Positions 3,882 to 39,676 of a DNA stretch of 40,261 bases are shown piece by piece. Source of the DNA: Patescibacteria group bacterium. GTDB taxonomy: Bacteria > Patescibacteriota > Minisyncoccia > UBA6257 > GWB1-50-10. The stretch covers positions 1 to 40,261 of the forward strand of contig JANBVK010000001.1 in the NCBI GenBank assembly GCA_024239035.1, in the 5' to 3' direction. The translations under genes and the position numbers were made by a program. Every line of letters begins with the position of its first letter. The first letter of the stretch is position 1. The notes beneath the pieces are model-generated. The model worked only from the letters and a program-made list of their open reading frames with translations. It was not told the origin of the DNA and ran no database searches.

Positions 3882-4211
3882 ATGTTCAAATTCATCATAG
3901 AAATGTTAATAATGGTAAGCTTGGGTACTATTTTGTATTTACTTGCCAGAACGATGCCGAGGGTTGATGATAGAGAAACGGATATCCCATCCTTAAAAAC
4001 TCACTGGATAATGGGCTATTTAGAGAAAGCTGACCAAAGGCTAAAATTCTATTGGGAGAAAACCTTACGCCGGTCGGGTATTGTCATATTGAAATTGGAC
4101 AATGCAATAAACAAAAAATTGAGCCGTCTTAAGAAAGAAAATGCAAAGGAGAGCACCTTTTCAATAACAGAAACAGAGGGAGACAAAAAGGAGGATAAAG
4201 ATGCTGTTTAA
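3882..4211 (+). CDS. Hypothetical protein with an N-terminal transmembrane helix
   Basis: Starts 1 nt after tsf; hydrophobic N-terminus. Confidence 0.75.
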   Translation: MFKFIIEMLIMVSLGTILYLLARTMPRVDDRETDIPSLKTHWIMGYLEKADQRLKFYWEKTLRRSGIVILKLDNAINKKLSRLKKENAKESTFSITETEGDKKEDKDAV

Positions 4212-4216
4212 TTAAT

Positions 4217-4299
4217 GCGCAGGTGGTAGAGTGGTCAATTACACGAGTCTGTAAAACTCGCGCCTTAGGGCTACGCAGGTTCGAATCCTGCCCTGCGCA
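4217..4299 (+). tRNA. tRNA-Tyr(GTA)
   Basis: Acceptor GCGCAGG/CCTGCGC, anticodon arm CGAGT-CTGTAAA-ACTCG, long variable arm, T-loop TTCGAAT. Confidence 0.97.
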
Positions 4300-4474
4300 C
4301 ATGAAAACCCCGACCCCCGCTTAAGACACCTGTCGGGTTTCTTAGCTCCCTTCGGTCGGATCTTCCAGCAGCTGGGTTTTCATTCTGACTTCCTCTTATT
4401 AGGAAATCAGGGTGGTTTGAACGGAGAAGGTCTACCTGCGCACACTTCAACCATTTTTTTATTTGATTTACTCT

Positions 4475-4514
4475 TGTCCTCACTTCGTCCACATATGTGG
4501 ACGAAGTGAGGACA
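4475..4514. repeat. Perfect 40-bp palindrome
   Basis: TGTCCTCACTTCGTCCACAT|ATGTGGACGAAGTGAGGACA; a partial copy lies at 21793-21820. Confidence 0.9.
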
Positions 4515-7398: not shown

Positions 7399-7569
7399 AT
7401 GGCAAAGGGGAAATTTACAGAACAATTAGTGCGGCTTAGGTGTACTGCCTGCAAGAAGGTTAATTACAATAAGCGCAAGAATAAAAAGACGGTGGAGCGG
7501 AAACTTGAATTAAAGAAGTTTTGTCGTTGGTGTAGGAAGCATAAAACTCATAAGGAGAGTAAGAAGTAA
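7399..7569 (+). CDS. rpmG: 50S ribosomal protein L33 (zinc-ribbon type); host 5' part plus phage-supplied 3' part
   Basis: Missing from the ORF track (56 aa): MAKGKFTEQLVRLRCTACKKVNYNKRKNKKTVERKLELKKFCRWCRKHKTHKESKK; CxxC...LELKKFCxxC.KH..HKE signature. Confidence 0.96.
   Translation: MAKGKFTEQLVRLRCTACKKVNYNKRKNKKTVERKLELKKFCRWCRKHKTHKESKK
7513..7535 (+). repeat. attL core inside rpmG
   Basis: AAGAAGTTTTGTCGTTGGTGTAG, 22/23 identical to 39620-39642. Confidence 0.9.
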
Positions 7570-11007: not shown

Positions 11008-12402
11008 ATGACTATAAAATTAATAAAAATTACAGAGTGCTGTGAGTCAAAAACGAACACTCGCGGCAAGGATGCGTTCCAAGGCCCGGCGTTCAACGAT
11101 CTTGTGGCGAGTATCAAAGAGAAAGGGGTAATAGTGCCGGTGATTGTCCGGGAAACAAGCTCAAGTAACAGATCAGTCGCTTACGAAGTTGTCGCTGGGA
11201 GTCGCCGGCTCCAAGCGGCAGCTATTGCGGACTTACAGCAAATCCCAGCAGACGTGCGGGAGCTGTCCGACGTCGAGGCCAGGGAGATACAAATCATAGA
11301 GAACTTACAGCGCGAAGACATCCACCCCGTTGCCGAGGGGGAGGAGTATCGCAAACTTATAGAAGTGTCGGGATATGAGGTGAAGGACGTAGCCGCGAAA
11401 GTGGGCAAGTCGGAGAGCTATGTTCGGCAGCGATTACTGCTTACCAATCTCACCAAAGCTGCTTCGAAGGAGTATCGGGCCGGGAAAATAGACTACGGCC
11501 GCGCGGTTTTGGTAGCGGGGCTTAGCCCCAACGACCAGGAAACGGTTATAAAAGAAATAAAGAGCGGGTGGAATGCACCGACTGCAGTGGCTCTTAAGGA
11601 GCTTATAGAAAGAGAGATATACAAACCTCTCGCAAGTCAGCCGTGGCTCCACGATAAGAAAGTGGCCGAAGCCGTCGGACCATGCAAGGAGTGCCCGCCA
11701 AACAGGAGCGATCTCTTTGGAGAAATAAAAGACGGCCAGTGCACAGACTTAGTTTGTTGGAAGCGCAAGATGGATCTTTATGTCGATTACCGCAAAGGGG
11801 GAATTAAGGATCTTATCCTCGTTAGAAAGGACTACGGATCGGCAAGCAAAGGCGTTCTCTCCCGCAGCAACTATGAGTCCTTGGGCTCGAAGAAGAAACA
11901 ACATTGCAGTTATGCTAGGCAAGCCATCGCGGTAGAGGGACCGGGAGCCGGAAGTATCTTTTGGATCTGTGCTGATGGCAGTTGTAAAAAGCATCACTAC
12001 TCGTTCACGTCTTATGAGCAGACGCCGGCTGAAAAGAAAAGACGGAAGAAGCAACTCCAGCGCGTGCAGGCAGAAAAAGACAAAGAGGATAAGAGAATCT
12101 TAATAGCGCTCAAAAAAGTGAGGTGGCCGATGTCAAAGAAGGTCCTGGACGCGATACTCGAGAAGCAACTGGGACGAGGTCCGCAAATCCTCCGGCCGGT
12201 CATGAACCGCCACAAGTTGAAGATAAAATTGGTAACGCGCAAGAACTGGGAAGGCAAGATGGTCAAGGAACGCGATGTTGGGGCGACACTCCGGGACGCT
12301 GCAAAGAATATGAAGCCGCGTGAGAGGCTGCAGCTGGTGATCGAGATCATCCTGGAGGACTCCTGGGAAGAGGCGAGGGAGAAAATAATCAAGATGCTAT
12401 GA
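11008..12402 (+). CDS. ParB/RepB/Spo0J-family protein with a Cys-rich central region
   Basis: LVASIKEKGVIVPVIVR, YEVVAGSRRLQAA, IIENLQREDI, HTH VAAKVGKSESYV; C..CP...C....C cluster. Confidence 0.88.
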   Translation: MTIKLIKITECCESKTNTRGKDAFQGPAFNDLVASIKEKGVIVPVIVRETSSSNRSVAYEVVAGSRRLQAAAIADLQQIPADVRELSDVEAREIQIIENLQREDIHPVAEGEEYRKLIEVSGYEVKDVAAKVGKSESYVRQRLLLTNLTKAASKEYRAGKIDYGRAVLVAGLSPNDQETVIKEIKSGWNAPTAVALKELIEREIYKPLASQPWLHDKKVAEAVGPCKECPPNRSDLFGEIKDGQCTDLVCWKRKMDLYVDYRKGGIKDLILVRKDYGSASKGVLSRSNYESLGSKKKQHCSYARQAIAVEGPGAGSIFWICADGSCKKHHYSFTSYEQTPAEKKRRKKQLQRVQAEKDKEDKRILIALKKVRWPMSKKVLDAILEKQLGRGPQILRPVMNRHKLKIKLVTRKNWEGKMVKERDVGATLRDAAKNMKPRERLQLVIEIILEDSWEEAREKIIKML

Positions 12403-15399: not shown

Positions 15400-15615
15400 A
15401 TGAATCAAAAGTTCTTTATAGCGGAGAATGGCAATCTCGTTGTTCTTTACATAAATGAAGCAGGCACGAGGCATGTTGCCGTTTGCGAGCCGATTGAGGA
15501 CGTTGTTTTTCTTTCGGTAGTCAAAGAAGGCAGAAAAGTAGGGAAAGGTCAGCGGCTCTGTAAAAAATGCGGGCAGCCAGGACACACGAAACGAACTTGC
15601 CCGAAGCGAGGATAA
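15400..15615 (+). CDS. Small protein with a C-terminal CCHC zinc knuckle
   Basis: CKKCGQPGHTKRTC matches C-x2-C-x4-H-x4-C. Confidence 0.75.
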   Translation: MNQKFFIAENGNLVVLYINEAGTRHVAVCEPIEDVVFLSVVKEGRKVGKGQRLCKKCGQPGHTKRTCPKRG

Positions 15616-17544: not shown

Positions 17545-17720
17545 AGGATAAGAGTACGATATTACCAGCGAATCAAAAACCCCGCATTAAGTTCGTGAAA
17601 AAAGCCGGCCTCTGGTGCAGGACAACATGGGTCGACGATAAACAGAAACAAGAATGGTTTAAGGAGAAGCCCATCGAGAAAAAACCGGAAAGTAAAATAG
17701 AACACCATGATGAGTTTTAA
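17541..17720 (+). CDS. Small hypothetical protein (59 aa)
   Basis: Not in the ORF track. MKDKSTILPANQKPRIKFVKKAGLWCRTTW...; ATGA overlap upstream, TAATG overlap downstream. Confidence 0.7.
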   Translation: MKDKSTILPANQKPRIKFVKKAGLWCRTTWVDDKQKQEWFKEKPIEKKPESKIEHHDEF

Positions 17721-19003
17721 TGAAAATTGAACAGATAAAAATTAAGGATATCCGTTTTTCGGAATACAATCCGCGGAAGATTACTGATACGGAGCTCACG
17801 AAACTATGTGAGAGCATCCGCATGTTCGGGTTCGTTAACCCGGTAGTGGTAAATACACATACCTGCGAGAAATGCGCCGACCGGAACCTCGTGCTTATTG
17901 GTGGGCATCAGAGAGTCAAAGCGGCCGAATCTGAAGGAATGGATGAAGTGCCGACGGTAAAAGTAGATCTTCACCTCGAGCAGGAGAAGATCTTAAACCT
18001 ATCACTAAACAGGATCGGCGGTGCGTGGGACGCTGACAAGCTGGCGGATCTAATTTTGGATATCAGAGGATCAAGCATACTTCCCATGTCGGGATTCAAT
18101 GAAGATGAGATCAGTCGTATACTCGATAGCAGGCTTATTGATGATACCGATTATGGGAACGAGGAGACAATCCCCGAAGATCATGATTCGCAAATCGGCG
18201 AAGTGTACGATCTTGGGGTTCACCGGCTTGTGTGCGGCGACTCAACCGACCCTAAAACGTTTGATCTCCTCCTCGGTGATGAAAAGGCGGACATGGTATG
18301 GACTGATCCGCCATACAACGTTGCTTATGAGAGCCGCGGAAAAAGATTAAGAGAGGAAAACAAGTCAACCATTAAGAATAACGACCTACCACCCGAACAG
18401 TTCCAGGAGCTTATTGATAAATCGTTTTTTAACATGCTGCAGTGCGCAAAAAGCGGAGCGGTGTTTTATATCTGCTCGGGTTGGTCAAGTTATCCGGTGT
18501 TTTTCGAGCAACTCAAAAAACACGGATTCAAGTTGTCAGGTACGATCGTATGGGTTAAAAATATCGCATCGAAGGGATGGGGCGATTATGACTACAAGCA
18601 TGAATGGATTGTCCGGGCCCGGAAAAAAGAAGAAAAGGAAAAAGTAAAGGGAGTAAGCATTATTTACGGTTGGAAAGAAGGGTCAGCACATAAATTCTTC
18701 GGCAGTAGGGACGAGTTTGACGTGTGGGAGATGCCGCGCAAAGCGGTGATGCAATACCTGCACCCCACCGAAAAACCCGACTGGCTGCCTATGCGGGCGA
18801 TCCGCAACTCCTCAAAACGCGGGGATATTATTCTTGATCCGTACACAGGGTCGGGCAGTGTAATGCTTGCAGCGGAGAAAACCGGCCGGCGGGCGTACAT
18901 GATTGAATACGATCCGCGGTTCTGCGATGTTATCCGGCGGCGGTACGAAACAATATTGAGAAAAAATCAGGAAATTAAAGGTCGACCGCAAAATAATCAG
19001 TGA
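17720..19003 (+). CDS. ParB-N domain fused to an N6/N4 DNA methyltransferase (beta-class order)
   Basis: YNPR...SI..FGFV.PVVV...IGGHQR; catalytic DPPY; HPTEKP; SAM motif ILDPYTGSGS. Confidence 0.92.
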   Translation: MKIEQIKIKDIRFSEYNPRKITDTELTKLCESIRMFGFVNPVVVNTHTCEKCADRNLVLIGGHQRVKAAESEGMDEVPTVKVDLHLEQEKILNLSLNRIGGAWDADKLADLILDIRGSSILPMSGFNEDEISRILDSRLIDDTDYGNEETIPEDHDSQIGEVYDLGVHRLVCGDSTDPKTFDLLLGDEKADMVWTDPPYNVAYESRGKRLREENKSTIKNNDLPPEQFQELIDKSFFNMLQCAKSGAVFYICSGWSSYPVFFEQLKKHGFKLSGTIVWVKNIASKGWGDYDYKHEWIVRARKKEEKEKVKGVSIIYGWKEGSAHKFFGSRDEFDVWEMPRKAVMQYLHPTEKPDWLPMRAIRNSSKRGDIILDPYTGSGSVMLAAEKTGRRAYMIEYDPRFCDVIRRRYETILRKNQEIKGRPQNNQ

Positions 19004-19261: not shown

Positions 19262-19855
19262 ATGCCAAGTAGACCAAAGGAAGTAGAACAAAATCTAAGG
19301 CGGGTTATTCGTGATGCAATTGTATACGATCCGCTTATTTCTGTGCGAGGTCTCCAGGACATTTTATTAAAGCAGGGTTTCAAGACGACTAGAGAGAATG
19401 TGCTTGACTGGCACTACGTTGCAAATCTCGTCCGCAAAGTGAGGAGGGAGTCTGTCGAGAAGTCTGATAAAAAAAGACTGCAAACGCGTTTCGGTGAGCT
19501 TAGTGAGAAATACCGTGTTATCTCTGAGCGGTTGATCCGGATAGCGTTTTACACCAAAGAAATGAGGCAGCTAGGTATGAAGCCGCCGAGTTATGATGAG
19601 CAGATGAAAGCCCTGGACATGATTTTCAAGCTTGACCTGGCCATTCTGCAAGCGGAGATGGATGCAGGTATCTACCAGCGAAAACTCGGATCAATGGATA
19701 TAACAACCCCAATACCGCTCGACAACGCAGTAAAACTTAACATGCTGCAGGTTTTTCATCATTGGGGTCTTATTAAAGAACCACCAAAGAGAATAGATAT
19801 TAATGATAGCCGAGACATTAAAACAATTTCAGAGCCAACAAAACCTAAGTCCTGA
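19262..19855 (+). CDS. Putative terminase small subunit
   Basis: Size and position immediately upstream of, and overlapping, TerL; positional inference only. Confidence 0.55.
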   Translation: MPSRPKEVEQNLRRVIRDAIVYDPLISVRGLQDILLKQGFKTTRENVLDWHYVANLVRKVRRESVEKSDKKRLQTRFGELSEKYRVISERLIRIAFYTKEMRQLGMKPPSYDEQMKALDMIFKLDLAILQAEMDAGIYQRKLGSMDITTPIPLDNAVKLNMLQVFHHWGLIKEPPKRIDINDSRDIKTISEPTKPKS

Positions 19856-21260
19856 AGAATTAGGACAACTTCTTGAGCATCCGGAAGTTAGAAAAGAACT
19901 CCGAAAAACTTACAAGGGGTTTTGTTTTGTATATTCTTCGCATTATTTAAGATTACCTCCCGCTGAATTTCACCCGGAAATGATTGATCTTTTAGGCGAC
20001 TGGCTGGAAGACATGCTCGCACTCGTCGCTTTTAGAGGATCAGCGAAGACAACTCTTGGAAACACATTGCTTACTTTATGGGCAGCTCTTGAAAAAGAAA
20101 GTCCATTCATACTGCCATTTAACGAAACTGGTGACGTTGCAGTTTTAAATATCGCAAACATTCGTCACGAGCTTGAGAACAACGAGCTTCTCATCCAGGA
20201 CTACGGCGATATGAGCAAGGGGATTAGCAAAAACAGGAGCTGGACAAAGCTTAATCTTCTTCTCGCAAACGGCGTGCGCATTATGGGACGTTCACGGGGG
20301 CAAAAAGTCCGCGGACTTATACATCGCGGCCACCGTCCCAGCTTTGTGATTATTGATGACCCGGAGGAACTCCACAAAGTAAAAGGTGAAGCATACCGGG
20401 AGAGAACGGAACAGTGGCTGCGCTCAGACGTAATACCTGCGATTGATGAGTTTGGTTCGCGGTTAATATTACTCCTTAATCTTCTTCACCGTGATTCACT
20501 AGCAGCGCGCATTAAAAACGATCCACTCTTTACTTATAGAGAATATCCAGTCCTTGACGAGAAAGACAATATTATGTGGAAGGGAAAGTACCCGGACATG
20601 GAAGCGATAAAAAAACAGGAGCAAAAGGTTACGTCTTTAAAAAAGGGATCGCGGGGCACGTGGATGCGGGAGTACATGCTCAAAGTTATCTCGGAAGAAG
20701 AACAGGTAATTAAGGAGGAGTGGATCAGACGTTACGATAAAGTACCAACTGAAGCTATAAAGAGCGGGGTGGGGGTTGACCTTGCAATCAGCAAAAAGGA
20801 TACGGCCAACAAAACGGCAATGGTATCGGGAGTGCTCGCGTTTGTTGATGGCATGCCGAAAATCTATGTTCTCCCAAATCCAGTTAACGCTAGATTCACT
20901 TTTAACGAAACTATGAGTGAGATGAGAAGCATTGCTCTAGGACTCCGGATCTACGCTCCGCCGATGTTTTTTATAGAAGATGTGGCGTTCCAAAAAGCAG
21001 CAATTCAAGAAGCAGAACGCAAGATGATCGCTGTTAAAGGGATGAAACCGGGAAGTGACAAGAGATCGCGACTTGGAACTGCATCGGTTTATGTACAAAA
21101 CGGCACAGTGTTGTTTCCTAAAAAAGGTTGTGAAGATTTAATTGATCAACTCATCGGTTTTGGCGTAGAAGATGATGACGACTTGGCCGATGGATTTGTA
21201 TACATGGTGCTCGGGCTGGCCGAGGAGGGCCTTGAACAAGATGGAGTAGTAATGTTATGA
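19803..21260 (+). CDS. terL: Terminase large subunit
   Basis: Walker A FRGSAKT, Walker B VIIDDPE, nuclease GVDLA and DDLAD. Confidence 0.92.
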   Translation: MIAETLKQFQSQQNLSPEELGQLLEHPEVRKELRKTYKGFCFVYSSHYLRLPPAEFHPEMIDLLGDWLEDMLALVAFRGSAKTTLGNTLLTLWAALEKESPFILPFNETGDVAVLNIANIRHELENNELLIQDYGDMSKGISKNRSWTKLNLLLANGVRIMGRSRGQKVRGLIHRGHRPSFVIIDDPEELHKVKGEAYRERTEQWLRSDVIPAIDEFGSRLILLLNLLHRDSLAARIKNDPLFTYREYPVLDEKDNIMWKGKYPDMEAIKKQEQKVTSLKKGSRGTWMREYMLKVISEEEQVIKEEWIRRYDKVPTEAIKSGVGVDLAISKKDTANKTAMVSGVLAFVDGMPKIYVLPNPVNARFTFNETMSEMRSIALGLRIYAPPMFFIEDVAFQKAAIQEAERKMIAVKGMKPGSDKRSRLGTASVYVQNGTVLFPKKGCEDLIDQLIGFGVEDDDDLADGFVYMVLGLAEEGLEQDGVVML

Positions 21261-21466
21261 ACGGTAAGAAACCAACAACAAGAACTATGCGCGAGGTACC
21301 GGACGAGTGGGACCGGCTGATGCGTGTCGCCGCGGCGATTAATTACGGATCCGCAAAGGTGGTATTTAAAGATGGCAAGCCGGTGCGGATTGATGCGGCC
21401 ATAAAGCAAATAAAACTCGATAGCGAGGATGATTTTAATGAAGGATTGAAAACGATACCGCTTTAA
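21257..21466 (+). CDS. Small DUF2292/YezD-like protein, candidate RNA-binding regulator
   Basis: AAAINYGSAKVVFKDGKPVRID...QIKL resembles the YezD pattern I.YG.V.I...DG....I.....K. ATGA-coupled to terL. Confidence 0.6.
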   Translation: MNGKKPTTRTMREVPDEWDRLMRVAAAINYGSAKVVFKDGKPVRIDAAIKQIKLDSEDDFNEGLKTIPL

Positions 21467-21480
21467 AGTATTGTGGTATC

Positions 21481-21780
21481 ATGGATGAGGAACAAAAAAG
21501 GAGAGCTCATCAAGCGCTCAAAGAGATAGAAGATATTTTAAAAGGAGTAACGGATCTATACCCCATTTACAAAGAAGCAGTCGCGGAGGGGGAGAAAGGA
21601 AGTGGCTTGAGATCTCTAAGGATATTAAAGAAAGTCAGCGGAATTATTAAAAATTACAGCATGGGGAATGCAGATCTTAAACTAGGAAGATTAATGGATT
21701 TCTTTGGTAGTATAATCACTGGTAAAGCAAGAAGCGCTGCGAGCGAAATTGATCAGCCGGACGAGGAGAAAGACGATTAA
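21481..21780 (+). CDS. Hypothetical phage protein
   Basis: 99-aa co-oriented ORF. Confidence 0.65.
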   Translation: MDEEQKRRAHQALKEIEDILKGVTDLYPIYKEAVAEGEKGSGLRSLRILKKVSGIIKNYSMGNADLKLGRLMDFFGSIITGKARSAASEIDQPDEEKDD

Positions 21781-21866
21781 TTATCTTCAAAACGTCCACA
21801 TATGTGGACAAAGTGAGGACGCTTAAAGTCGCCTGTTTTTTATCCACAGACAAAACAGAGTGGATT

Positions 21867-21991
21867 TGTTATAATAAAAGCGTAAATTAACAATTCATTC
21901 CCAGCTCGGGGATGGGTCCGAGTGGAGCAACCATAGGACTTGTGACCTTGCCTTTCTATTTAGAGGCTCGTGTCACGAGTCCTTTTTTATT
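21867..21991 (+). promoter_or_regulatory. Late promoter and attenuator leader, copy A, upstream of the portal
   Basis: TGtTATAAT; hairpin; core GTCCGAGTGGAGCAACCATAGGAC (21916-21939) overlapping terminator AGGACTTGTGAC/GTCACGAGTCCT plus T-tract. Confidence 0.8.
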
Positions 21992-22000
21992 TGCGTTTCT

Positions 22001-24205
22001 ATGGATGTTTTTATCAACAAACTTCTTGGTAAGGTAGGTCTTGTTCGTAAGTCAAGCATATCTACCTCATCTTCGTTGGGCGGCTCAGACCCTTTTGCGA
22101 TTTGGCGTGGCTCAAAAAAAATCTCAGTTGAAAAAGCAATGGGGGTGTACAGCGGTTGGGTTTACACTGCTGTGCGGGCAATTGCGGAAGAAATAGGGCG
22201 CATTCCTTTCCATTTATTTCAGATAAAGAAGGATGGATCGATTGAGGAGCTGTTCGATCATGATCTTCTTAATCTCTTGTTCGCTCCGAATCCGCATCAC
22301 ACAGGATACGAGCTGAAGTACAACACACTCGCACACCTCGAGCTCGGTGGGAATTCATATTGGTTACTTGACGGCGTTAAAAATGATACCGACCAACCGC
22401 GCAATATTTATTGGCTGAGTCCTAAGTACATGACGGTTGAGAAGGGCGAGATTCCTGAGATTGTAAAAGGTTACACTTACCGCATCGGATCAAAAACTAC
22501 AAAGTATCAGCCGCACGAAATTCTTCACATCCGTTATCCCGATCCCAACGATCCCTTTGAGGGTATCGGAACGGTGCAGTCAATCGCGCAATGGATCGAT
22601 GCGGATAACTATGCTACTGAATTCAATCGCCGCTTTTTCTTAAATGGTGCTCGGATCGGCGGATTTCTTGAGTCGGAAAACGCGCGCACTCCCGAACAGT
22701 TAGAATTTTTGAAAAAATCTTTTGAAGAAATTTATAAGGGTGTTGAGAACGCGTACAAGATAGCGGCGTTGCCGAAAGGGACAAGTTATAAAGAAGGTCA
22801 GTCAAAGATTAAGGACATGGACTTTGCGAATCTGCAGCGTGATAGCCGGGATAAGATACTCGCAGGATTCCGGGTGCCGAAAACTACCCTGGGCGCTGCC
22901 GAGAGCGACACTAACCGCGCCACTGCAGAGACCGCCGATTTCGTTTTCGCTGCCCGGACAATCAAACCCAAAATGGAACTGCTTGTTACATTTTTGAACG
23001 AGCGATTGGTGCCGCGATACGGTGACGACATATATCTCGACTTTGATAATCCAGTACCAGAGAACCGGGAACAGCGGATTAAAGAAATGGAAGCGGCCAC
23101 CGGCAAACAACCAGTGATAAGTATTAACGAGGCGCGCGAACAATACTTTACGCTGCCGCCTATTGAAAACGGTGATGCCGTAAGAGGCGACTTAATGAAA
23201 CAGCCGATCGGTGAACCCGAAAAGCGGCGGAAGAATGTGGTAAACATTAAAACCAAAAACGGCAGGACGATACCGAAAACAAGATTCGCCTTAAATCTGA
23301 AACGCAGAAAAGACGCATCGAAAGAGATCGCGGGTTGTCTCGTTGATGAGGTGAAAAAAATCGGAGAAGATGCAGAAAAGATAAAAGAAAGAGCGCAGCA
23401 GGGGATCGCAGAACTAAACGACGAACAGTACGAAGCTATCTGGAAAGTATTTATCACACGCATATCGCCATTTGAGAAGCGGCAAGTAGAGGCGTTGCGA
23501 GATTTCAACAGTAAGCAAAAAGATGAAGTGCTTAAGAATCTTGAGAGTGCTCTCAAGGCCCTCCCGGCAGAGAAAGCGATCAACCCCGATGATTTATTTA
23601 AAAAGGGTGAATGGGTTGGCGTGCTCGTTGATTTAGAGACACCAATCCTTACTGAACTCTATGAAGAGGAAGGATCCGCGGCTGCTGAGTTTCTGGGATT
23701 TGATGATTTAAACATTCTCACGCCCGCAAACAAAAAAGCGTTAGATGAGTCCGTTGAGCTCATGGCCGAATCCTACAACGAATCAACGCTGAAACTCCTT
23801 AAAAAGAAGCTTGAGGAAGGCCAGCGCGAGGGGTTGCCTCTTGAGGAGTTGAAGGAAACGGTCCGCAGCGTGTATGCCTTCAGTGATGAAGTGCGGGCAG
23901 AACGGGTTGCCCGGACAGAGACGTTTAGAATCGCTAACAAAGCGACAAAAGATGCCTGGAAAGAAACAGAAGTTGTAAAAACTATCAAGTGGTACACAGC
24001 TCAAGATGAACGGGTTGATCCTGAAATCTGTGCGCCGCTCCATGGGAAAGTGATCTCAATTGAAGATAACTTTTTCAATAAGGGAGATGAAATAGAACTC
24101 AGTAATGGTGGAACATTTAAGGTCGATTATGACGACGTGGGAAGTCCACCCATCCACGTCAGTTGCCGATGCTATATGAGACCGGAAGAAATAAGCATCG
24201 ATTAA
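22001..24205 (+). CDS. HK97-family portal protein fused to a MuF (head morphogenesis) domain
   Basis: VYTAVRAIA, PNP..TG, LGGN.Y, EILHIR, FF.NGA..GG, FRVP..LG; C-terminal RAERVARTE, KW....DERV...C..LHG, PPIH..CRC. Confidence 0.92.
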   Translation: MDVFINKLLGKVGLVRKSSISTSSSLGGSDPFAIWRGSKKISVEKAMGVYSGWVYTAVRAIAEEIGRIPFHLFQIKKDGSIEELFDHDLLNLLFAPNPHHTGYELKYNTLAHLELGGNSYWLLDGVKNDTDQPRNIYWLSPKYMTVEKGEIPEIVKGYTYRIGSKTTKYQPHEILHIRYPDPNDPFEGIGTVQSIAQWIDADNYATEFNRRFFLNGARIGGFLESENARTPEQLEFLKKSFEEIYKGVENAYKIAALPKGTSYKEGQSKIKDMDFANLQRDSRDKILAGFRVPKTTLGAAESDTNRATAETADFVFAARTIKPKMELLVTFLNERLVPRYGDDIYLDFDNPVPENREQRIKEMEAATGKQPVISINEAREQYFTLPPIENGDAVRGDLMKQPIGEPEKRRKNVVNIKTKNGRTIPKTRFALNLKRRKDASKEIAGCLVDEVKKIGEDAEKIKERAQQGIAELNDEQYEAIWKVFITRISPFEKRQVEALRDFNSKQKDEVLKNLESALKALPAEKAINPDDLFKKGEWVGVLVDLETPILTELYEEEGSAAAEFLGFDDLNILTPANKKALDESVELMAESYNESTLKLLKKKLEEGQREGLPLEELKETVRSVYAFSDEVRAERVARTETFRIANKATKDAWKETEVVKTIKWYTAQDERVDPEICAPLHGKVISIEDNFFNKGDEIELSNGGTFKVDYDDVGSPPIHVSCRCYMRPEEISID

Positions 24206-34735: not shown

Positions 34736-34860
34736 TGGTATAATTAGGACATATAATTGAAAATCAATACTCGCGATAGGCGAGTTTGAGTCTAAGTGGA
34801 ATAACCATAGGACTCGCGGTTTACCTGATCTCCAGGATAAGCTGCGGGTCCCTTTTATTT
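34736..34860 (+). promoter_or_regulatory. Late promoter and attenuator leader, copy B, upstream of tail fibre and lysis genes
   Basis: TGgTATAAT; hairpin; core GTCTAAGTGGAATAACCATAGGAC (34790-34813) overlapping terminator GGACTCGCGGTTTA/TAAGCTGCGGGTCC plus CTTTTATTT. Confidence 0.8.
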
Positions 34861-38009: not shown

Positions 38010-38034
38010 CCTTACCACAATTAAAAAACCTATT

Positions 38035-38197
38035 GTCCCGGAAGGGATCACCCGCAGCGGCGGGAGATATGACCGATGGGGTTCAAAATTGCCGAGAGAG
38101 GCAATATAATGATAACGCGATGGCGAAAGCTGTCGTAGTGCCTTGCAAGGCGCGCACGAACCCACCGTTGAGTCATATCGCGGTGGGTTTCGTGTTT
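38035..38197 (+). promoter_or_regulatory. Highly structured integrase 5' leader with two mutually exclusive folds
   Basis: 38066-38084 can pair with 38158-38179; alternatively 38155-38167 pairs with 38181-38194. Several small internal hairpins. Confidence 0.6.
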
Positions 38198-39160
38198 ATG
38201 AAATTCAGTGATGCAATAGAAAAATTTATTAACAGATCTGATTTAGAGAGAGCAGAAGGAACTGTAAAAGCGTATGAACAAGATCTCAAGAGATTCTGCG
38301 TCTTCACGCACAACCCTATCATCACAGAGATAACAGAAGAGAATGTGGTGGCGTACTTCCGGTTGCTCATCGAGTTGAAATACAAAAAGAATGCGTTTAT
38401 TCCCATACAACAATCCTTAATAAACTTCTTTAGATATTGGAGGAGAAAGGGACTTTACGTTCTGGATCACGAATTGATCCCCCGGACCAAAAAAGAATTC
38501 AGGATGCCGGATGTCGCCACAGAGGAAGATTACAGGAAGATGTTGGCGGCCATTCCTCAAGACACCAACCAGGCATTCCACATCAGGAACCGCGCCATGG
38601 TCATGTTCCTTGAAGCGACCGGCTGTCGCAACGGTGAGATGTGCTCTCTCAATATTGGTGATTCTAACTCTAGTCAAATCAAAAAAAATTACCTCGATCT
38701 AAGAAATCAAAAAGCATTGATCGAGACAGAAAAGAATAGAGGCAGTAGGCCCATTAGAGAGATATATTGGAAGGACAGCAAAGAAACTCACGAGGCGTTA
38801 TTAAAATGGATCGCAAGACGTTCTGAAATGAAAAAACATATAGTTTTTAAGGACCCTGACGCTCTCTTCGTAGGTTGTATGGGCTGGCAAGTAGGGAAAC
38901 GGCTGATGAACAGTGCAGTATGTATTGCGCTGCGCAAAATTTCAAGGAGTGCCGGGCTTACTTACAATTTTCATCCTCACATGCTCCGCCATAAATTCGG
39001 GCACGATCTTAATCGTGAAGGAGCAAATGCCTTTACAATTGCCGGGCTATTAGGACATGTTTTAGTAGAGAGTTCAAAAATTTATACGGAGATGGATAAT
39101 AAAGAGAGGCAAGAGGCGTATGTGAAATATAAGGGGGACCGGCACAAGAAAGACCAGTAG
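38198..39160 (+). CDS. int: Tyrosine recombinase (integrase)
   Basis: RNRAM..FL.ATGCR.GE (R), KN (K), HPHMLRH (HxxR), LLGH, IYT (Y); adjacent to attR. ATG 38198 preferred. Confidence 0.95.
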   Translation: MKFSDAIEKFINRSDLERAEGTVKAYEQDLKRFCVFTHNPIITEITEENVVAYFRLLIELKYKKNAFIPIQQSLINFFRYWRRKGLYVLDHELIPRTKKEFRMPDVATEEDYRKMLAAIPQDTNQAFHIRNRAMVMFLEATGCRNGEMCSLNIGDSNSSQIKKNYLDLRNQKALIETEKNRGSRPIREIYWKDSKETHEALLKWIARRSEMKKHIVFKDPDALFVGCMGWQVGKRLMNSAVCIALRKISRSAGLTYNFHPHMLRHKFGHDLNREGANAFTIAGLLGHVLVESSKIYTEMDNKERQEAYVKYKGDRHKKDQ

Positions 39161-39619: not shown

Positions 39620-39676
39620 AAGAAGTTTTGCCGTTGGTGTAGAAAACACCAAACTCACAAAGAGAGCAAGAAGTAG
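39620..39676 (+). pseudogene. rpmG: attR: displaced original 3' end of rpmG
   Basis: Encodes KKFCRWCRKHQTHKESKK-stop; 48/57 nt identical to 7513-7569. Confidence 0.92.

Follow-up and report, generated by a model that had tools for sequence, protein, structure and literature searches.

A DUF2292/YezD-like small gene, a late promoter and a terminator-overlapping RNA hairpin form an exchangeable cassette between terL and portal in phages of candidate-phyla-radiation bacteria

The small gene and its protein family

The stretch of DNA analysed here (hereafter the window) comprises 40,261 nucleotides (nt) from a Patescibacteria group bacterium (GenBank assembly GCA_024239035.1, contig JANBVK010000001.1, positions 1 to 40,261) and contains a prophage in which a small gene (21257..21466, + strand) for a DUF2292-like protein of 69 amino acids (aa) lies between the large terminase gene, terL (19803..21260, +; phrog_38, 3e-53, and the list of open reading frames (ORFs)), and the gene for a portal protein fused to a Mu-F-like domain (22001..24205, +; Phage_portal, 5.5e-61; Phage_Mu_F, 9.8e-15). 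The portal gene is the first behind a switch composed of a promoter, a short RNA hairpin and an intrinsic terminator. A first-pass annotation of the window, made from the sequence alone, had proposed that the small protein is a late antiterminator that binds the hairpin. Several of its premises were borne out: the small gene is present in the ORF list with the quoted peptide INYGSAKVVFKDGKPVRID, and is backed by Pfam, by phmmer relatives and by an AlphaFold2 model; its stop lies 450 nt before the first hairpin copy (copy A); and a scan of the 42 + strand ORFs of at least 60 aa against Pfam and PHROGs recovered no recognisable Q-, RinA-, ArpU- or sigma-like protein. The ATG of the small gene shares bases with the terL stop (as ATGA), and gene order suggests that the small gene is part of the early/packaging transcript.

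Within the DUF2292/YezD-like small proteins, the 69-aa protein falls into a phage branch. The assignment, first made by eye, stood as distant homology at the family level, while the window protein itself fell below the Pfam cut-off for PF10055 (E 0.0014, 18.6 bits, against a gathering score of 22 bits; residues 20-47 aligned to profile positions 4-31 of 37; 18.9 bits in a six-frame search of the genome). Among the 47 phmmer relatives that make up our alignment (A1), 33 matched DUF2292 at E<=0.01 (best 9e-8), and of 75 small proteins from the terL-portal interval of non-redundant loci, 33 matched DUF2292 (best 8.2e-7) and at most 4 matched any other family; the 22-bit cut-off was passed by three relatives (24.4 bits for L016, 22.2 bits for L017 and 24.9 bits for P0022). 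An exhaustive phmmer search returned 49 representatives at E<=1e-3, nearly all of 48-83 aa, two of which are spurious (P0034 and P0049, transglycosylase-associated and hemopexin repeats). The nearest Atlas clusters partly carry PF10055, which we treat as a lead only. No NCBIfam family matched the window protein at E<=1 (including no YezD-type naming model), a word-index protein search returned only the protein itself, none of 50,697 GenBank phage records was matched by tblastn at E<=1, and no fused form was seen among 7999 longer candidates, the last being weak evidence. With DUF2292/YezD the protein shares its small, single-domain format (55-80 aa) and a YG-x-hydrophobic strand followed by a G-K-P turn; it differs in that the phage branch adds a conserved N-terminal E-W-x-R-L helix and a C-terminal D-F...L tail, and in that the window branch is phage-borne and fixed in the terL-portal slot.

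The family is rare, with matches in 4 of 401 species-representative genomes of the phylum (the window's own included) and 2 of 401 in a class sample. Two of the three other phylum matches lie directly behind terL: in L015 a phrog_2 terL is followed by the leader and then a phrog_2662 portal, and in L017 the DUF2292-like gene overlaps the end of a phrog_675 terL, and an SU10-like portal lies 4.7 kb downstream. The third match (L016) is not phage-associated, its neighbours being RTX and DUF4352 genes, and DUF2292 proteins such as YezD of Bacillus subtilis are likewise found in cellular settings. No molecular function is known for DUF2292/YezD, and the first-pass remark that the family has no established mechanism agrees with the searchable literature, which gave none; the microbiological items retrieved for YezD were B. 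subtilis studies, none of whose titles or abstract openings concerns YezD. OscA of Pseudomonas presumably also belongs to DUF2292. One report presents OscA only as a small protein without known function in a sulfate-transporter cluster (PMC2996968).

With alignment A1, AlphaFold2 gave a model with a predicted local distance difference test score (pLDDT) of 70.8 (81-87 across residues 11-40; the single-sequence model was poor, at 52.5), in which a helix (residues 16-28) is followed by two strands (34-38 and 41-46) and a second helix (57-65). Searches for similar structures were blank: Foldseek against the PDB found nothing at E<=0.001 (best E 1.6), a wide structural search found no fold match (best Z 2.5) and a sequence-profile search of the PDB had no match below E 0.2. 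These blanks are evidence neither for a novel fold nor against an RNA-binding fold.

The leader and the exchangeable cassette

The leader in front of the portal gene is a structured RNA. In the window, hairpin A (21916..21939, +; 36.8 bits with covariance model R1, and covariation) consists of a 4-bp stem (P1), a GA bulge opposite A, a second 4-bp stem (P2) and a 5-nt loop, and is followed by intrinsic terminator A (21936..21991, +; fold z -5.7, terminator scan and structural descriptor), the first four bases of which are the 3' strand of P1. Hairpin and terminator are therefore mutually exclusive, because the P1 3' strand is the foot of the terminator stem. A second unit (34736-34860) holds an extended -10 read from the sequence (TGGTATAAT; 34736..34744, +), hairpin B (34790..34813, +; 38.6 bits with R1), which has an AA bulge and a P2 identical to that of copy A, and terminator B (34810..34860, +; fold z -5.2, descriptor); it precedes a 652-aa ORF without known family, an M23 peptidase and a holin-like gene (Pfam, PHROGs). 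The 24-nt hairpin occurs only in these two copies in the 794-kb genome, with 0 expected by chance.

The descriptor (hairpin part: a 4-bp P1, a bulge of two purines, a 4-bp P2, a 3-7-nt loop, A and the P1 return strand; terminator part: a 5' arm beginning at the P1 return strand) recovered both known copies and one chance hairpin without a terminator from the window's 40 kb, and in 658 kb of IMG/VR loci gave 35 matches on the portal strand and 0 on the opposite strand, 29 of the 35 at a shared position before the portal. The terminator 5' arm starts at the P1 3' strand in these 29 portal-proximal copies as well as in the two window copies. In an alignment of 22 leader copies, from which R1 was built, 6 of the 9 pairs had changed on both sides, with 17 further pair types, and no slid register came close; the 22 rows were chosen by a pairing rule, so that the figure of 97.9% paired is circular. 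R1 detected the leader in front of the portal in most loci, and the R1-negative carriers mostly proved by eye to be variants in which P2 has 3 bp or the internal loop is AA/AC, GG/A or missing. Rfam holds no family for the leader (best RsaOG, 24.2 bits, against a gathering score of 50). A search of IMG/VR with the exact leader pattern was set aside: its 4 matching stretches all lie within coding sequence and are attributed to chance. Across 10 complete or near-complete phage records, R1 matched exactly once in 8 and not at all at E<=0.01 in 2, and a single gene next to a single target is therefore the usual layout. In the genomes with several copies (2 in the window, 3 in L211 and 2 in L216/L217), P2 and the loop differ between copies with compensation, and the bulge and the first P2 pair are constant within each genome (three genomes only). 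Separately, ACAATT, often as ACAATTTAAA, precedes the hairpin by 11-46 nt in 22 of 66 non-redundant leaders (~1.5 expected; in the window at about 21891-21896) and might serve as a linear RNA element or as a pause signal resembling a -10.

We consider the small protein the best candidate for the phage factor that opens this switch at the RNA level, by antitermination, a role that is plausible, if short of probable. Its association with the leader was assessed through portal homology, a route chosen to avoid selecting by gene or leader (terL as a single IMG/VR query had found no relative), which yielded 171 loci (71 from IMG/VR, 23 from genomes and 77 from metagenomes; 129 clusters at 97% identity). 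An iterated hidden Markov model of the small protein matched exactly once in each of 109 of the 171 loci, on the portal strand, 5-3057 nt upstream of the portal and invariably in the terL-portal slot. Non-redundant loci with 1500 nt or more of sequence before the portal numbered 107; with the leader scored as a model hit or a terminator, 65 of them had both gene and leader (46 with model hit and terminator, 10 with a model hit only and 9 with a terminator only), 38 had neither, 1 had the gene only (L058) and 3 had no small gene but a generic terminator (L101, L072) or, in one case, a true leader (L120). Both the DUF2292 similarity and the co-occurrence on which the first-pass annotation had staked its proposal were found. 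On a FastTree portal tree of 96 rows, the small gene required 6 state changes, 3 of them on supported branches; in about 2.8 of 3 independent pairs the leader changed along with the gene, and in none did it change in the opposite direction. Two loci nested in carrier clades (L064 and L130) lack both gene and leader, and there terL abuts the portal.

No other upstream gene family tracks the leader. When ORFs were grouped into families across 37 genomes with 7-10 kb upstream of the portal (24 R1-positive and 13 R1-negative), the small protein was the only family present in 24 of 24 model-positive genomes, and occurred in 1 of 13 model-negative ones; next came terL (23/24 versus 7/13) and terS-like genes (23/24 versus 5/13), and all remaining families were found in at most 18 of the 24. 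This profile covers 10 kb upstream of the portal and rests on BLAST-level clustering, which can miss divergent small proteins. It bears on the possibility, which we judge quite unlikely, that the small gene is a passenger serving some other function (host-directed or in exclusion, for example), with the hairpin acting by itself or recognized by a host factor. The operon-boundary slot does gather other genes, such as the 99-aa ORF of the window phage (ORF99), and gaps of 330-2970 nt separate the small gene from the leader in L049, L026, L028, L176 and L155; the non-phage settings of L016 and YezD would also fit a passenger. Yet passengers are patchy, whereas the small gene is in all 24 leader-bearing genomes and in every supported carrier clade, and no insertion ever separates it from terL. 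In most relatives, its stop lies 48-125 nt before the leader. As side observations on other inserts at the switch, L190 carries a reverse-transcriptase-like ORF (about 330-1000; YADD motif, by eye) just upstream of the leader, and L094 a small four-cysteine ORF (4280-4483) between terminator and portal.

The small gene, promoter, hairpin and terminator together form a discrete exchangeable cassette with sharp borders, located between terL and portal in a large group of phages of candidate-phyla-radiation bacteria. Two pairs of close relatives show the exchange. Between L154 and L157, the portals are 97%, the terL products 81% and the small proteins 39% identical, with unrelated promoter-leader-terminator stretches; blastn homology stops at 4145 (small gene from 4146) and restarts at 4505 (portal from 4495). 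Between L049 and L053, it stops at 3899 (small gene from 3895) and restarts at 4501, the portal start. Over both pairs, small-protein identity is 36-39%, against 91-97% for the portal and 81-86% for terL, and a second cassette type is found throughout in L157, L053 and L175. On the other side of the border, terL itself has been swapped: it is phrog_2 in L124, L128, L059 and L109, which belong to separate portal lineages, and phrog_38 elsewhere, with the small gene, leader and portal staying together and the junction falling right at the small-gene start. The cassette borders, the persistence through terL swaps and the gene-family profile are new relative to position alone.

That the exchanged cassette takes in the promoter as well as the leader would also be expected if the small protein regulated the late promoter itself, binding DNA or polymerase in a Q-like manner at a TTATCCACA box or at ACAATT, a reading to which we give little credence. 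The promoter is of sigma-70 type with an extended -10 (TGTTATAAT; 21847..21875, +; TG before TATAAT) and is the best promoter-like site in a 10.5-kb promoter scan (10/12 matches plus TG). Directly upstream of its -35 lies the TTATCCACA box (21840..21848, +), which is conserved at a fixed spot about 160-180 nt before the portal start, exactly in 23 of 74 small-gene carriers and with at most one mismatch in 40 of 74, compared with 1 of 48 non-carriers; of the copies in 1.1 Mb of loci, 29 are on the portal strand and 7 are on the opposite one. ACAATT, within 70 nt upstream of the hairpin in the 22 loci given above, and a non-basic protein with an acidic conserved surface, which suits polymerase binding better than RNA binding, also speak for control of the promoter. 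However, an RNA-level step is indicated because the hairpin covaries and consistently overlaps the terminator foot, Pfam gave no helix-turn-helix or Q-family match, and a host protein fits the box better, since the identical 9-mer stands in cassettes with strongly different small proteins (L049 and L053) and recurs in the host genome as a palindrome. We take TTATCCACA to be the Escherichia coli DnaA-box consensus, and this box may be the point at which a DNA-binding protein of the host influences the late promoter. The palindrome (RTCCACATATGTGGAY; 21794..21809, 16 nt and perfect) recurs across the host genome at 12 sites with at most 2 mismatches (0 for a reversed-pattern control), two of them in the window (4487-4502 and 21794-21809) and 10 more on contig 1; the prophage-internal copy lies between ORF99 and the late promoter, and its half-site resembles TTATCCACA.

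Possible action of the small protein on the leader

Under the antitermination reading, the small protein, co-translated with terL from the end of the upstream operon, would then act on transcripts from the constitutive-looking late promoter, either stabilizing the weak P1-P2 hairpin or holding RNA polymerase there. The four bases common to P1 and the terminator foot would thereby become unavailable for the terminator stem, and polymerase would continue into the portal, head and tail genes; in the window phage, read-through might also extend into the tail-fibre and lysis unit behind copy B. Both the protein-RNA contact and the terminator read-through are steps that we infer.

Two known systems offer partial analogies. 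In the BglG/SacY/LicT family, a CAT domain binds a RAT (ribonucleic antiterminator) hairpin that overlaps the 5' foot of a terminator, preventing termination. The window leader is comparable in being a short imperfect hairpin with an internal loop that overlaps the terminator 5' foot; in contrast to those regulators, the small protein has no CAT or PRD Pfam match at E<=1, is too short at 69 aa for PRDs and has a predicted helix-hairpin-helix order instead of an all-beta dimer, and the operon targeted is a late phage operon that carries a promoter of its own. Phage lambda Q is encoded by the last conserved gene before the late promoter PR', which has a promoter-proximal terminator, tR'. Similarly, the small gene closes the conserved part of the upstream operon, before a strong promoter and a promoter-proximal terminator, and the exchange of regulator and site together as a specificity cassette would parallel that in lambdoid phages. 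The systems differ in that the small protein is one third the size of Q and has no match to a Q-family antiterminator in Pfam or PHROGs, that a covarying RNA hairpin overlaps the terminator here whereas Q needs none, and that the switch comes after terS and terL instead of preceding them.

Several observations weigh against antitermination by the small protein. The family is not basic (median pI 6.6, median net charge 0), its best-conserved residues are W18, G31, E17, E46, D59 and F60 and not arginine or lysine, no lambda N-type arginine-rich RNA-binding motif or conserved Arg or Lys cluster was found in it, and no RNA-binding fold was recognized by Foldseek against the PDB or by the wide structural search. 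Adjacency of gene and leader alone could explain their co-inheritance, which is partly expected without any functional link because one deletion or recombination tract moves both, and the tree test was not significant (median p 0.25), as three supported pairs cannot reach significance. The small gene is also bound to terL far more closely than to the leader. Its start overlaps the terL stop, a gap of -4 nt, in 35 of 61 loci, and in 57 of 61 the gap falls between -44 and +14 nt; from its stop to the leader the distance is 48-2970 nt, every insertion being on that side. Exceptions occur in both directions. L058 and its duplicate L125 carry an intact small gene ending 22 nt before the portal, with no leader anywhere in the 7978-nt contig of L058; L120 has the leader without the small gene, its upstream DNA coding for membrane proteins and not terL; and the unrelated prophage in L017, with its DUF2292-like gene behind terL, has no R1 match, nor did folding of the DNA downstream of that gene reveal another leader (z -0.10, no significant structure). 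Finally, the proposed switching of head, tail and lysis genes rests on the two copies in the window phage, most relatives having the portal copy only.

Part of this evidence would be accommodated if the small protein were instead a gpW-like packaging or head-assembly accessory acting with the terminase or portal, with the leader under other control, such as a host factor; this we hold to be possible, if rather doubtful. It would account for the tight coupling to terL, for the constant position between terL and portal, for the small gene without a leader in L058, for the L017 gene overlapping a different terL family with no leader of this kind, and for conserved acidic and hydrophobic residues, as in a protein-protein interface. 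Lambda gpW is a 68-aa head completion protein with a helix, beta-hairpin, helix structure, and its gene lies between terL and portal; the small protein has a similar size and slot and, in the model, a resembling helix-hairpin-helix order. However, no Pfam match to gpW (PF02831) was obtained at E<=1, and the small gene stays through terL family swaps and is lost together with the leader in nested lineages: L064 and L130 lack it despite having the same terL type and a related portal. The sharp divergence of the small protein between phages with near-identical portals, as in the two exchanged pairs, would likewise be unexpected for a fitted partner. gpW was not among the rows of the Foldseek and VIA searches, made with a model of only moderate confidence. 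A complex prediction with portal residues 1-480 gave no answer (score 0.00) and speaks neither for nor against binding.

If antitermination by the small protein were correct, a matched protein-hairpin pair would give DUF2292/YezD a molecular function, and the cassette would constitute a compact orthogonal transcription switch (a protein of ~70 residues and a leader of ~90 nt) with natural specificity variants. No description of this switch turned up in a literature search covering antitermination and late genes in connection with terminase, portal and Patescibacteria. The cassette alleles (for example, L154 versus L157) make the hypothesis directly testable by swapping cognate and non-cognate partners. 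A broader and speculative extension, which we regard as unlikely though worth stating, is that the DUF2292 fold is a new class of small antiterminator that reads the GA bulge opposite A, is swappable with its cognate RNA and times all late genes, and that cellular YezD and OscA are attenuation regulators of the operons they precede.

Prophage setting and neighbouring genes

The surrounding element is a prophage of ~32 kb with all genes on one strand and an integrase at 38033-39160. It is flanked by a 56-nt direct repeat (7513-7568 and 39620-39675; 86% identical), the right copy of which adjoins the integrase gene just upstream of a tRNA-Trp; the repeats are possible attachment-site remnants. 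Within the portal fusion, the Mu-F-like head-morphogenesis domain occupies residues 601-725, and the fusion is conserved in the sampled relatives. ORF99 (21481..21780, +; ORF list), which lies between the small gene and the switch in the window phage, matched no family in Pfam, PHROGs or NCBIfam. Further upstream, a 71-aa ORF (15400-15615, +) ends in a C-terminal CCHC zinc knuckle (PF00098, 24.7 bits, above the cut-off), which is unusual for a phage; as a rival hairpin binder it was rejected, not being among the widespread families of leader-bearing genomes. Two proteins with ParB-N domains are encoded at 17720-19003 and 11008-12402, and one of them is fused to an N6/N4 DNA methylase (phrog_498, 6e-118), a fusion that recurs in 18 of the 24 leader-bearing relatives.

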